Of a stretch of 64,000 nt of DNA, positions 17,938 through 30,367 are shown one piece after another. The notes beneath the pieces were generated by a model that ran no database searches, was not told the origin of the DNA, and worked only from the letters and a program-made list of their open reading frames with translations. This DNA is from an uncultured bacterium (GTDB lineage Bacteria > Zixibacteria > MSB-5A5 > JAABVY01 > JAHJOQ01): positions 43,225-107,224 of the forward strand of contig CBDUQR010000003.1 of the NCBI GenBank assembly GCA_965369655.1. Reading direction: 5' to 3'. The translations under genes and the position numbers were made by a program. How positions within the stretch are numbered: the stretch's first letter is position 1; the number at the start of each line of letters is the position of its first letter.

Positions 17938-18525
17938 CTACGACAGCGTACCTTTCAGCAAGTAGAAGTTCTTCACGACATAATCGATACCGGACCATAC
18001 AGTCACGACCATCGTGACGAACAGCATGATGTCAAATGTAGTAATCACTCTGGGGTCCGTGAATATCCCCCAGTTGATATCCCAAACCGGCAGGAAAGTC
18101 TTGAGGTTAATATAGACGAGAATCACCCCGACAACTGTCATCTGAAGGAATGTCTTCACCTTCGCGAAACCGCTGGTCATGATTACCACTCCTTTGTATG
18201 CAGCGAGCGATCTCAGGCCGGTAATGAAAAAATCGCGCGCGATGATTGGCACCACCATCCATGTGCGGGCGTAACCGAGAGCGATAAACGCGATCAGGGC
18301 GGACGATACGAGTATCTTATCCGCCAGCGGGTCCATGAACTTGCCAAACCCTGTGGTAATGTTATATTTGCGTGCGAGCCAGCCATCGACGAGATCGGTC
18401 AGCGCCGCAATCGCGAATATGATCAGCGCCGCGAGCCGTGCATAGACATTGTCGATGAGAAACAGGAACACAAACAGCGGGGCAAGGAATATCCTGGTGA
18501 GTGTGAGACGGTTCGGCCAGTTCAT
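17938..18525 (-). CDS. pgsA: CDP-diacylglycerol--glycerol-3-phosphate 3-phosphatidyltransferase
   Basis: 'PNRLTLTR' and the CDP-alcohol motif 'DLVDGWLAR...GKFMDPLADK'. Confidence 0.95.
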   Translation of the reverse strand: MNWPNRLTLTRIFLAPLFVFLFLIDNVYARLAALIIFAIAALTDLVDGWLARKYNITTGFGKFMDPLADKILVSSALIAFIALGYARTWMVVPIIARDFFITGLRSLAAYKGVVIMTSGFAKVKTFLQMTVVGVILVYINLKTFLPVWDINWGIFTDPRVITTFDIMLFVTMVVTVWSGIDYVVKNFYLLKGTLS

Positions 18526-18546
18526 ATACGGCTTCTCAAATGCGGT

Positions 18547-18575
18547 AAGCTATCGGATATAGGAGTACGTGTCAA
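18547..18575 (-). promoter_or_regulatory. Putative sigma70 promoter of the pgsA operon
   Basis: Minus strand TTGACA-N17-TAGCTT. Confidence 0.6.
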
Positions 18576-18641
18576 GTTCATAGACTCTTGGGTTTTAGGA
18601 AAAGCATCTTACTTGTAAGCACCCATCCGTTCACCACTCTC

Positions 18642-19790
18642 TTAAGCTTCCTCGAGTACTTCGAAAATGTCCGGCGCCACGTATTTCTTGGGACGTACAC
18701 TCTTTTGGGATTCTTGGAGAATGCCAACCTCAACAAGCTTGGAGACCGCTGTCTTGACAGTTGGATAACTAACATTCCAATGGTGGCTAAGCTCTGATAT
18801 CGACACTACAGGATTAAGAAAAAGTTCTTCCATGGCTCGTATAGTATTTTTCGGCAACCTGCTTCCCTCGAGCTTTTCTAAATAGTCTAAACGTAACTTA
18901 ATCAACTTGTCCGACAAGTCGGTGGCATGATCTGCTTGAGTAATGATTGCCCTGAGAAAAAACTCAATCCACTCTCGCCATCGGCCCTCCCTGCTGACCG
19001 AAAGGAGATGGCTGTAATACTCATTGCGATGCCTTTCAAAAAACGCACTCAAATAAAGCAATGGCTGTGAAAGGTATCCCCGTGAGCATAGGAATAATGC
19101 AATCAACAGTCGTCCAATACGTCCATTCCCATCAATAAAAGGATGAATCGCTTCGAATTGATAATGCATGAGAGCGCATTTGATCAACGGGGATTCATCT
19201 GATACGTCGTTCATGTACTTCTCCCAGTCTGAGATAGCATCTTTCATCTCAGCAACTGGTGGAGGAACATACGTGGCATCTTTCAGCAAACAGCCGGGTG
19301 ATCCAATCCAGTTCTGTGTGGTTCGGAATTCGCCGGGATATACTTCACAGCCCCGCACGCCTTGAGTCAGGATTTCGTGTATGTCCCGAATCAAGCGACC
19401 ACATATTGGGAGCTCTTTGATTCCTTCCAACCCTGCTTCCATTGCCCGAATGTAGTTCCTGACCTCCTTCACATCACTGTTTACTCCAGAGACTCGAGAA
19501 GTTGCCTCGTCGAAGTATACATCGCTCAGCGTAGCCTCAGTACCTTCAATGCGCGAACTGAGCACCGCTTCGATTCTTAAGAATGGTCCTATGAGAAGAT
19601 ATGGGTTGGGTAAATGCTTTCCCACACCTGAGAGCAATCCTAACTTACGATCCGCCTCAGAGAGAAGAGCGACAAGATCGCTGTCATAGTCAAGCTTGGG
19701 AGGCAGGGGATTAGGAATGAATGCCCAATATTTAGCAGGTGTTTTTACAACTCTACCTGCTCCGCTTGCTTTGAAATCCTCAGGGTTCAT
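18642..19790 (-). CDS. Fic family protein (class II, N-terminal inhibitory helix, C-terminal wHTH)
   Basis: Canonical HPFIDGNGRIGR motif, inhibitory SSRIEG motif, C-terminal HTH-like 'SISELSHHWNVSYPTVKTAVSKLVEVGIL'. Confidence 0.93.
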   Translation of the reverse strand: MNPEDFKASGAGRVVKTPAKYWAFIPNPLPPKLDYDSDLVALLSEADRKLGLLSGVGKHLPNPYLLIGPFLRIEAVLSSRIEGTEATLSDVYFDEATSRVSGVNSDVKEVRNYIRAMEAGLEGIKELPICGRLIRDIHEILTQGVRGCEVYPGEFRTTQNWIGSPGCLLKDATYVPPPVAEMKDAISDWEKYMNDVSDESPLIKCALMHYQFEAIHPFIDGNGRIGRLLIALFLCSRGYLSQPLLYLSAFFERHRNEYYSHLLSVSREGRWREWIEFFLRAIITQADHATDLSDKLIKLRLDYLEKLEGSRLPKNTIRAMEELFLNPVVSISELSHHWNVSYPTVKTAVSKLVEVGILQESQKSVRPKKYVAPDIFEVLEEA

Positions 19791-19874
19791 CGGTAATTCC
19801 CCTCATTCAGATCTGACTCTGTTTCAAGAGCACTCTCAGACCTGATTCTATTCAGCAAAATTTGAAATGCTGCC

Positions 19875-20128
19875 ACCTTTAATCCATATTAATTGGATTA
19901 AAGAAAAATACTATTACCTTTAATACAAACTAATTGGATTAAAGAAAAATGTCAAAACCTTTAATATGAATTGGTTGAATTAAAGAAAAACGCCGGAATC
20001 TTTAATTCAAATCAAACCAATTAAAGAAAAAAATGTAACCTTTTATTCAAGAAAATTAAATTAAAGAAAAGTGCTAAAACCTTTAATTCAAATCAACTGA
20101 ATTAAAGGGAACTGCAATAACCTTTAAT
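19875..20128. repeat. Tandem array of 6.5 x 41-bp units, each with a CTTTAAT-N13-ATTAAAG inverted repeat
   Basis: Units start at 19875, 19916, 19957, 19998, 20038, 20079 and 20120 (half unit); conserved half-sites, variable spacers. Confidence 0.92.
19927..19955 (-). promoter_or_regulatory. Putative sigma70 promoter of the Fic gene, inside the repeat array
   Basis: Minus strand TTGACA-N17-TAGTTT pointing at the Fic ATG; same form as the pgsA and rsgA promoters. Confidence 0.55.
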
Positions 20129-20294
20129 TGAGAAATAACCTGTTGTATTACTCAATAGACTGCCTAATATCATATATAACAGACAATTACGACATCATCA
20201 CTTGCATGCAGATTGCCAGGAATCACCCGCCAGCAACTGCAAATCCATAACCAACTGCACCACAATATGATATGGCCAGATTGTTCGCCGCTCT

Positions 20295-22112
20295 TTACTT
20301 TCCCGCTAACTCCACAAACGGCTCGACATCCGCCAGCATGCGGTCGACTGCTGCTGTCCAGAAATCATCTTTGGTCAGGTCGACTCCGAGATGTTTCTGT
20401 GCAAGGTCTTCGGTCGTCATCGAACCGGTATCATGCAACAGCGCGTGGTACTTCTCGAAGAACCCTTTGCCTTCAGTCTTTGCCCGATCATAGACTCCGC
20501 CCGCAAACAGAAATCCGAACGTATACGGGAAGTTGTAGAACGGCAGTCCGGTCAGGAAGAAATGCAGCTTCGATGCCCAGAAGAGTGGATGATATCCACT
20601 TTCGTCGAGCGTATTTCCAAACGCTTTCTTCTGCGCATCGACCATGATCTCATCGAGCCGTTTTCGAGACACAATGCCATTCTTCCGCTCTGAATAGAAA
20701 GCCTTATCGAAGATAAACCTCGCCTGCAGATTGCAGAACATCACATGAGTCCGCTGCAGCTTCTGATCGAGCAGCATCAATTTCTGATCCGGATCGCCCG
20801 CTTCATTGAATGCCGCGTCGGTCACAAGAAGCTCATTGAAAATCGACGCTGTCTCTGCGAGATTCGCCGGATACTCCGCGGCGAAATACGGAACATCTCT
20901 CAGCACCCAGGTGTGCCAGGCATGCCCAAGCTCATGCGCCAGGGTCATCATGTCGCCGAAGGTATCGAGATATGTCATGAATATGCGGCTCTCTTTGACC
21001 GGACCAAATCCGGTACAGAATCCGCCACCAGCTTTGCCGGATCGATTCTCGGCTTCAATCCATCTCTTGTCGAACGCCATCTGCGAGAATTCCGCCATTT
21101 CGTCGGAGAATCCCCCAAGATGTTTGACGATGAACTTCTTCGCTTCATCCCAACTCATCTTCTGGTCTGATTCTCCGACCGGCGCCGATTGATCGAACCA
21201 ACTGAATTTGTCGATTCCAAGCAGCTTTTTTTTCGTCTCGATGTATCGCTCTAAGCGAGGCACACCCGCAGCAACGGCATTCCACATGGCATCGATAGTC
21301 TCCTCTTTCAGCCGCCCCATGACGAGTGGTTCATACAGGATCGAATCCCAGTTTCGATTGCTGTAGAGCGACAACCTGAAACCTGCGAGAGAGTTAAGAG
21401 TCATAGCTGCGTATTCGGCGCGCGTTTCCCATGCCGCTTCGAGTTTCTCGAACGCCTGCTTCCTGATCGATCTGTCGGAACTGTCCATCTTGCTGGCGAG
21501 CTGCCCGAGCGAGATCTCGGTTGTTTTTCCATCCTCGTCGAAATCGACACGAAGATCCCCCGCCATCTTATCGTAAAGCCGGTTCCAGGCATGGTAACCG
21601 CTCACGGCTAATTCGTTCGCAAACGCCTCGAATTCCTCGGACATCTTCTTACGAGCGTTTGTGCGGAGTTCATCCAGCGAAAAACGAATCCCGGACAGCT
21701 CGGGATCATCGAGAAGCGCCGCCCATGCCGCATCATCCTGTCTGCGAGCATACGATTCGATCCGTGTCTGGAGTTTGTACCAGTCAGATATGAGAACATC
21801 GATCTCCTGTTTGATCTGCAATGCCGGCATGTCATCGACATTCTGCGCAGTGAGACATTCCGCGAATGCAGCCACGAGTTCGATATCCGTCACAAGCCGC
21901 TGATATTCCAGAATTGCCGACCTGCACTTATCGCTTTTGGAATGCTCCAGTTTATCGGGTAGCTGCGCAAACTGTTCAGCGGCTGCCGCGAGATCCTTTT
22001 TCAGTTTCTCACGGTAGTCAGAGAATTCTTTCGAGCCGGAACCTCCCGGAAAAATCGAATCGAGATTCCACCGCATAACGAGAGCGACATTTTCAGAAGC
22101 ATCAGAACTCAT
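20295..22112 (-). CDS. pepF: M3 family oligoendopeptidase (PepF-like)
   Basis: 'WNLDSIF', 'GKAGGGFC', zinc motif 'TLAHELGH', 'AETASIFNE', 'FYNFPYTFG'. Confidence 0.92.
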   Translation of the reverse strand: MSSDASENVALVMRWNLDSIFPGGSGSKEFSDYREKLKKDLAAAAEQFAQLPDKLEHSKSDKCRSAILEYQRLVTDIELVAAFAECLTAQNVDDMPALQIKQEIDVLISDWYKLQTRIESYARRQDDAAWAALLDDPELSGIRFSLDELRTNARKKMSEEFEAFANELAVSGYHAWNRLYDKMAGDLRVDFDEDGKTTEISLGQLASKMDSSDRSIRKQAFEKLEAAWETRAEYAAMTLNSLAGFRLSLYSNRNWDSILYEPLVMGRLKEETIDAMWNAVAAGVPRLERYIETKKKLLGIDKFSWFDQSAPVGESDQKMSWDEAKKFIVKHLGGFSDEMAEFSQMAFDKRWIEAENRSGKAGGGFCTGFGPVKESRIFMTYLDTFGDMMTLAHELGHAWHTWVLRDVPYFAAEYPANLAETASIFNELLVTDAAFNEAGDPDQKLMLLDQKLQRTHVMFCNLQARFIFDKAFYSERKNGIVSRKRLDEIMVDAQKKAFGNTLDESGYHPLFWASKLHFFLTGLPFYNFPYTFGFLFAGGVYDRAKTEGKGFFEKYHALLHDTGSMTTEDLAQKHLGVDLTKDDFWTAAVDRMLADVEPFVELAGK

Positions 22113-30126: not shown

Positions 30127-30285
30127 TGGATTCCAGCTTCTGCCGGAATGACACCTCGTATTCATATCACGAACAACAAGCCTCGTTATTCAGCCACATC
30201 ACCCGACCTGTCTTCCCCGCGGAGGCGGGGAACCATTACACGACGCGCGCTAGAGACAATGGATTCCCGCCTTCGCGGGAATGAC
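30127..30285. repeat. Three REP-like palindromes upstream of the GIY-YIG gene
   Basis: TGGATTCCAGCTTCTGCCGGAATGAC (30127-30152), GTCTTCCCCGCGGAGGCGGGGAACCA (30210-30235), TGGATTCCCGCCTTCGCGGGAATGAC (30260-30285). Confidence 0.85.
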
Positions 30286-30367
30286 AGCAAGAGCAACGGG
30301 AATGACGGCAAGAGCGGTAGGAATGACATCAAGAGCGGCGGAAATGACATCAAGAGCGATAGTAATG
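30277..30367. repeat. 21-bp tandem repeat (4.3 copies) starting with the REP terminus
   Basis: GGGAATGACAGCAAGAGCAAC / GGGAATGACGGCAAGAGCGGT / AGGAATGACATCAAGAGCGGC / GGAAATGACATCAAGAGCGAT / AGTAATG. Confidence 0.9.

Follow-up and report, generated by a model that had tools for sequence, protein, structure and literature searches.

The closest described systems to the locus analysed here are Fic proteins that carry a DNA-binding domain of their own, and what is said of them below follows the accessible portions of their reports. SoFic is listed as an anti-phage system (bioRxiv 10.1101/2022.05.11.491447), and homologues of the studied protein AMPylate EF-Tu and protect against phage (PMC12249575; bioRxiv 10.1101/2022.05.11.491447; bioRxiv 10.64898/2026.07.09.737422). 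The dimeric SoFic of Shewanella oneidensis specifically binds its first 100 upstream bp (bioRxiv 10.64898/2026.07.09.737422), and leaky expression of the wild-type E. coli Sofic suffices for toxicity (PMC12249575). How this toxicity is restrained and how phage triggers it are stated to be open (PMC12249575; bioRxiv 10.64898/2026.07.09.737422). CccR of Yersinia pseudotuberculosis, a secreted T6SS effector, represses its own promoter via a palindrome near −35/−10 and has recognition helices 70.2 Å apart (PMC9755527, PDB 7XUX). Finally, CbFic2 of Coxiella burnetii, described as acting on host histones, shows an activity that responds to DNA via its HTH, random DNA having been tested (PMC10628234, PDB 8CIL).

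In this study, we compare with these systems a gene found in a window of 64,000 nucleotides (the whole stretch of DNA that was analysed) from an uncultured bacterium of the Zixibacteria (Table 1). The gene is a member of the SoFic-family class II Fic-wHTH proteins, a protein family already known: its Fic_N and Fic domains are Pfam matches, the PADLOC SoFic match is a full-length family match (E 5e-118), and the HPFxDGNGRxxR and SxxxEG motifs recognised in a preliminary description of this DNA are both intact (HPFIDGNGRIGR at 216 and SSRIEG at 78). The structure model (mean pLDDT 90) predicts an N-terminal helix at residues 37-59, the element through which SoFic proteins form the homodimer already solved for the family, and a winged helix at the C-terminal end, in which helix 342-354 precedes the wing and residue 343 lies in its first turn; following the general winged-helix fold, we take helix 342-354 as the predicted recognition helix. 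Among solved structures, those of the E. coli and Shewanella SoFic proteins are the best matches (TM 0.75-0.77, 28-30% identity), and the three-part architecture, motifs and fold of SoFic (PDB 3EQX/3ZCN) and E. coli Sofic (PDB 9VJC) are shared with the studied protein. The clade of SoFic proper combines an Arg-Gln helix with ATCGACA, whereas the studied protein combines Pro343 with ATTAAAG; in the S. oneidensis protein the helix reads KRQTAS. Moreover, the studied gene stands alone between pgsA and pepF and outside a defence island, whereas SoFic systems typically lie in one. The accessible text of the SoFic and E. coli Sofic publications describes no operator sequence, no array and no test of transcription. 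Only 116 bp separate the Fic stop from pgsA, with one overlapping 65-aa ORF that by eye is unlike the 47-aa AS1 ORF of E. coli.

Table 1. Features of the Fic locus and its neighbours, in window coordinates
Feature	Coordinates	Strand	Basis
pgsA, CDP-alcohol phosphatidyltransferase, flanking, outside the unit	17938..18525	-	
SoFic-family class II Fic gene, 382 aa; Fic_N (41-122), Fic (132-234), C-terminal winged helix	18642..19790	-	
Predicted recognition helix, codons 342-354, contains Pro343, which tracks half-site bases 5-6	18729..18767	-	structure model; covariation
Fic catalytic motif HPFIDGNGRIGR, codons 216-227	19110..19145	-	
Inhibitory motif SSRIEG, codons 78-83	19542..19559	-	
Leader of 86 bp, free of half-sites, separating array and start codon	19791..19876	-	
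Phased array, 13 half-sites, CTTTAAT-N13-ATTAAAG-N14, period 41 (one 40)	19877..20128	no strand	
CTTTAAT-type half-sites (n=7), starts	19877, 19918, 19959, 20000, 20040 (variant CTTTTAT), 20081, 20122		
ATTAAAG half-sites (n=6), starts	19897, 19938, 19979, 20020, 20060, 20101		
Candidate sigma-70 promoter TTGACA-N17-TAGTTT; half-site 19938-19944 between boxes	19927..19955	-	
pepF, oligopeptidase F, flanking, outside the unit	20295..22112	-	

As far as the accessible text of the CccR report goes, CccR and the studied protein are both class II Fic proteins with a C-terminal HTH and a palindrome at their own promoter, here a candidate promoter that the palindromic site overlaps at the sequence level. 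The distance of 70.2 Å between the CccR helices equals about 20.6 bp at 3.4 Å per bp, near the 20/21-bp lattice of the present array; because CccR is distant in sequence from the studied protein (E 1e-15) and its dimer is, according to its authors, unlike that of SoFic, this match is only suggestive. A single 10-N26-10 operator is reported for CccR, in contrast to 13 half-sites in a 7-N13-7-N14 lattice at the studied locus. As printed, the halves of the CccR operator have centres 36 bp apart, which is about 122 Å, against the 70.2 Å linked to them (PMC9755527), and inner sites at a distance of 20-21 bp may have escaped notice. CbFic2 is a Fic-wHTH protein like the studied one, but no cognate site is known for it from the accessible portion of its report. 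The preliminary description knew of no comparable Fic-plus-array unit; in view of the autorepression by CccR (PMC9755527), the promoter binding by SoFic (bioRxiv 10.64898/2026.07.09.737422) and the DNA control of CbFic2 (PMC10628234), it overstated the novelty of Fic regulation through a DNA site. Our literature search, mostly confined to sources other than subscription journals, returned no paper that describes the features reported below, namely the lattice, the rule that links residue and base, the ~590-bp array of E. coli and the cognate arrays after stop codons. For the SoFic family, the analysis supplies candidate binding sites, their geometry and a putative specificity residue.

The orientations of the half-sites alternate along the array in steps of 20 and 21 bp, apart from one pair of equal 20-bp steps. 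The six full units and one half unit counted in the preliminary description, with an alternation of ~20.5 bp, correspond to these 13 half-sites, its unit starts lying 2 bp earlier because an AC prefix was counted in. The inner spacer is 13 bp in all six units and the linker is 14 bp in five of six and 13 bp in one; TRF gives a period of 41, 6.2 copies and a score of 165. Conserved half-sites and drifting spacers had also been noticed at the outset, and identity between units is indeed 98% for half-sites compared with 53% for inner spacers and 61% for linkers, which indicates selection on the half-sites. Within the 2.99-Mb genome, the five exact and six near-exact CTTTAAT-N13-ATTAAAG units all lie inside the array; no exact CTTTAAT/ATTAAAG unit with another spacer of 5 to 24 and no further cognate pair with at most one mismatch was found there. 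An identical array is present in contigs of three marine-sediment samples from one study, one of which may be the source of this DNA. The view of gene and array as one AT-rich module stands for the array (25-31% GC) and not for the gene (41-51%), the genome mean being 52%. The same genome has a second SoFic paralogue (L014, G000:C72:6461-7555) with Pro343 and a degenerate TTTAAAA-N14-TTTTAAA site, so that cross-talk with the long array is possible.

TTGACA-N17-TAGTTT is the sole 9/12 promoter match facing the Fic gene. The promoter that had been proposed to point at this gene is present on the minus strand, but its −10 box is weak (3/6), which is why a stricter, standard promoter scan omitted it; that scan returned a single 9/12 match on the plus strand, no better than chance. 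Between the end of the array and the Fic ATG the distance is 87 bp. Two near-identical 10-bp palindromic boxes (TCAGGTCTGA and TCAGATCTGA, minus strand) lie about 29 bp apart in the leader. Among the 72 upstream arrays found at homologues (see below), promoter-like sites face the gene in 33 and point away in 12, and a half-site falls between the promoter-like boxes in 23, these being raw counts without shuffle control.

With regard to its surroundings, the unit lies among genes of the PgpA, PgsA, PepF and UbiA families. Homologues of the Fic gene occur in 13 of 41 related genomes, including that of this DNA, which marks it as an accessory gene. In one relative (G005) pgsA and pepF are 132 bp apart and the site is empty, in another (G003) an unrelated gene separates them, and two more (G001, G004) show other neighbours. 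The empty site in G005 and the other genes in G003 and G001 bear out the earlier proposal that Fic gene and array were inserted as a unit between pgsA and pepF, and point to a recent arrival. No recombinase was found among the scanned flanking genes, and no flanking duplication was seen. The interval between pgsA and pepF (18526-20294 of the window) is a variable slot, which holds other accessory genes or an IS-like element depending on the relative (L136, L137, L135, L147, L138), and a pgsA promoter-like sequence just upstream of 18525 is retained.

Comparison of upstream regions indicates that homologues keep the spacing and change the half-site. Of the homologues selected by protein, the 76 whose flank reached 150 bp or more formed the training set; the query and three rows that were broken or distant were excluded. 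When the upstream regions were searched de novo for any 7-mer fitting a 20/21-bp-type lattice, 47 of the 76 scored at or above the cut-off of 2.6, compared with 4 of 380 shuffles; the controls reached the same score in 7/76 cases with half-turn-shifted spacings, in 0/68 downstream regions and in 2/113 other AT-rich upstream regions of the genome of this DNA. The motifs found de novo started with RTY in 55/76 loci and in 23/380 shuffles, a start that the search did not impose. Because the spacing rules had been taken from the training loci themselves, a fresh set was fetched from four phyla and viral contigs (120 loci, 116 usable; two training repeats and one unpublished genome left out). Lattice scores of at least 2.6 were reached in 32 of the 116, a weaker result than in the training set. 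Exact 7-mer repeats at 40, 41 and 42 bp were present in 15, 20 and 13 of the fresh loci, where about 1 is expected for each, and inverted pairs peaked at 15-28 bp. The conserved spacings of 11, 20/21, 31 and 41 are multiples of the helical turn, direct repeats included. When a looser lattice with a cut-off of at least 3 (0.4% of shuffles) was applied to 184 loci, arrays were found upstream in 72, downstream in 10 and on neither side in 103.

Across homologues, the half-site is correlated with residue 343 and tracks it. Proteins with Pro343 have ATTAAAG-like half-sites, those with Asn ATTGCAG or ATTTCCA, those with His ATTGAAG and those with Thr343 ATTACAA or ATTTTCG, to which the Arg-Gln helix of SoFic proper adds its ATCGACA. 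With the rule fixed beforehand, the fresh set showed an ATTAAAG chain for 10 of its 32 Pro343 proteins and for 2 of the remaining 84. Pro343 was present at 26/26 loci picked by DNA alone, several of which are near-identical kin, compared with 59/191 loci picked by protein. The covariation of half-site and wHTH helix that had been anticipated is apparent from both comparisons. When 357 alignment columns were ranked over 36 confident loci of <70% identity, residue 343 came first for half-site base 5 (z 8.2, next 4.4); it was not near the top for bases 2, 3, 6 and 7. At the same level of identity, AA occupies half-site bases 5-6 in 16/16 Pro343 proteins and in 2/20 non-Pro proteins. When the wHTH was left out of the tree, residue and half-site changed 7 and 6 times, 7 jointly. 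The nearest tree relatives of the studied protein (55-58% overall identity; 63% over the Fic part for L049) have Asn343 and ATTGCAG, and the protein has Pro343 and ATTAAAG and falls in a clade of 5 with Asn/Thr relatives that use other half-sites. Two independent-pairs tests had too few pairs and were not significant (2.8 same and 0.3 opposite, median p 0.5; 3 same and 0 opposite, p 0.25), and the strict ATTAAAG chain is absent in 32 of 60 Pro343 proteins.

Judged by its distribution, the array belongs to the Fic gene, and the link is family-wide. An exact DNA search of GTDB with two consecutive units, one genome per species, returned 33 loci from many phyla, 26 of them beside a SoFic-like gene, with the array upstream of the gene in 25 and downstream in one (L037). 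The other 7 of 33 are without an intact adjacent Fic gene: two are at contig ends (L030, L043), two (L033, L024) retain decayed Fic 5' ends, by eye, and three are orphans. A profile search for Fic remnants at these seven loci gave none that was significant. The genome of one orphan (L042) has a Pro343 SoFic with a similar array elsewhere. Two cyanobacteria-related genomes (L018:3001-3080, L040:2990-3080) have orphan ATTAAAG arrays upstream of one shared gene type, which we take to be TPR-like; no cognate SoFic was found in either genome at E<=1e-30, and these arrays may be relics or targets in trans. In Hyphomicrobiaceae (L030:38-300, L043:2635-3138) the array adjoins the 3' end of one gene, presumably argininosuccinate synthase and in L030 apparently a detached copy, an arrangement suggestive of insertion with a long target duplication.

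The array is likely, with a probability of roughly 0.7, to be an expanded operator: the winged helices of the enzyme itself would dock there and repress the predicted promoter within it. The position of the array beside its own gene, the covariation of half-site and helix and the precedent of CccR make autorepression, as first proposed, the likeliest role. Each Fic dimer would bridge a pair of half-sites separated by two helical turns. Residue 343, near the beginning of the recognition helix, would contribute to the recognition of bases 5-6, and the −35/−10 spacer would be hidden by as many as six dimers along a single face of the DNA. Such feedback would keep a toxic AMP-transferase scarce, and the toxicity of wild-type E. 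coli Sofic at leaky expression, as given in the accessible text, provides a reason for tight repression (PMC12249575). The extra copies probably came from block duplication and were then kept at half-sites only, and they may tighten repression or buffer free enzyme.

In its length, the studied array is the extreme of a recurring trait, not a new system. It scores 12.6, the top of 208 loci (next 8.4, median 2.8), and the median homologue has about three half-sites, most having 2-4. Long arrays recur (L162, L198 with about 300 bp of repeats, and E. coli) and were not found to lie consistently between divergent genes. Plasmid iterons and centromere arrays are helically phased multi-site arrays, from which the studied array differs in its inverted, alternating half-sites, in an array length that is not conserved within the family, and in that no Rep or ParA/ParB/ParM gene is among the flanking genes. 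Iteron- or centromere-like polymerisation, offered in the preliminary description as the defining feature, is not supported in a family with a median of about three half-sites; the centromere picture is weakened by the finding that expansion, though recurrent, is dispensable. Because two half-site types alternate in the array of E. coli sofic, it is missed by the strict one-mismatch score (4.4), so that the array counts are lower bounds. This E. coli array (L281:534-1122, NZ_CP095540.1) extends over about 590 bp with a 70-bp period made of 20, 20, 10 and 20-bp steps, and its half-sites are TGTCGAT/ATCGACA and ATGTTTA/TAAACAT. The sofic gene behind it matches all 12 numbered 9VJC residues checked, and shorter versions occur at L280, L282 and a Salmonella plasmid gene (L276). 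The E. coli array region is covered by 232 of 5426 genomes, and two among the 25 listed appear 140 bp shorter. A long array before a common E. coli sofic allele makes the question of restraint and triggering testable in laboratory E. coli. The idea that the published AS1 antitoxin is operator DNA was rejected, the 47-codon ORF after E. coli sofic being without a cognate half-site.

About 2 of the 10 downstream arrays look like unrelated repeats. Arrays after the stop codon were observed at L037, L132, L165, L167, L170, L174, L177, L179, L183, L184, L187, L223, L247, L252 and L254. Several downstream arrays begin at the stop codon and have the half-site that their helix or clade would predict (L037, L132, L165 group). 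Downstream arrays are more frequent at genes that lack an upstream gap (3/22 vs 7/162). Several of the Fic genes concerned presumably lie inside type I/III restriction-modification operons. An array after the stop codon cannot cover the gene's own promoter; such arrays may serve to repress the gene that follows, may have been left behind by rearrangement, or may act as an allosteric or parking site. It is conceivable, though doubtful, that SoFic and its arrays form a family-wide lock-and-key with a helix-to-base code in which the array works as a DNA antidote or sensor regardless of its position, and equally doubtful that array-parked dimers are harmless and that loss or dilution of the array in phage infection frees the AMP-transferase. 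If true, it would provide the activation step so far missing from the account of SoFic defence.

We regard it as unlikely that the main role of the array is that of a DNA ligand or parking site which sets the dimer state and the balance of AMPylation and deAMPylation, its loss or titration, for example by a phage destroying host DNA, releasing activity. Arrays right after the stop in 10/184 loci, their greater frequency at genes without an upstream gap and the recurrence of long arrays would fit this, and so would, in the accessible text of the reports, the alteration of CbFic2 activity by DNA through the HTH (PMC10628234), the need of SoFic AMPylation for a dimer (bioRxiv 10.64898/2026.07.09.737422) and the requirement of the C-terminal domain for E. 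coli Sofic toxicity (PMC12249575). However, the downstream arrays are possibly next-gene repressor sites or rearrangement leftovers, 72 of 184 loci have the array upstream and often across promoter boxes, most homologues have only 2-4 half-sites, and the CccR authors, in the accessible portion, state that toxicity and repression are independent (PMC9755527).

It is quite improbable that the half-sites serve some other DNA-binding protein, be it a host regulator, a nucleoid protein or a recombinase, or that the Fic cassette moves by recombination at them. An accessory unit inserted at a variable site would suit a moving cassette, and downstream placement could reflect circular permutation, but no recombinase was seen among the scanned flanking genes, no duplication at the flanks and no other cognate pair in the genome. 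Similarly, 7/33 motif loci without an adjacent intact Fic gene would allow for another binder; against this, ATTAAAG accompanies Pro343 in many phyla and close relatives with another helix use another half-site, and since the half-site follows the Fic helix a host factor is a poor fit. That the array works through a structured or processed RNA, either CRISPR-like or an antitoxin RNA, is very improbable: its predicted transcript folds better than shuffles (z −6.4), but any palindromic array would do so, the spacings are multiples of the DNA helical turn with direct repeats included, the spacers of 13-14 bp are 53-61% alike and thus unlike the unique spacers of about 26-50 bp that separate CRISPR repeats, no Rfam match was found for the array at E<=1, and a candidate promoter inside the array would leave most of it outside the message. 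A separate 21-bp tandem repeat with 4 copies (TRF score 112) is present at 30275-30367 of the window.
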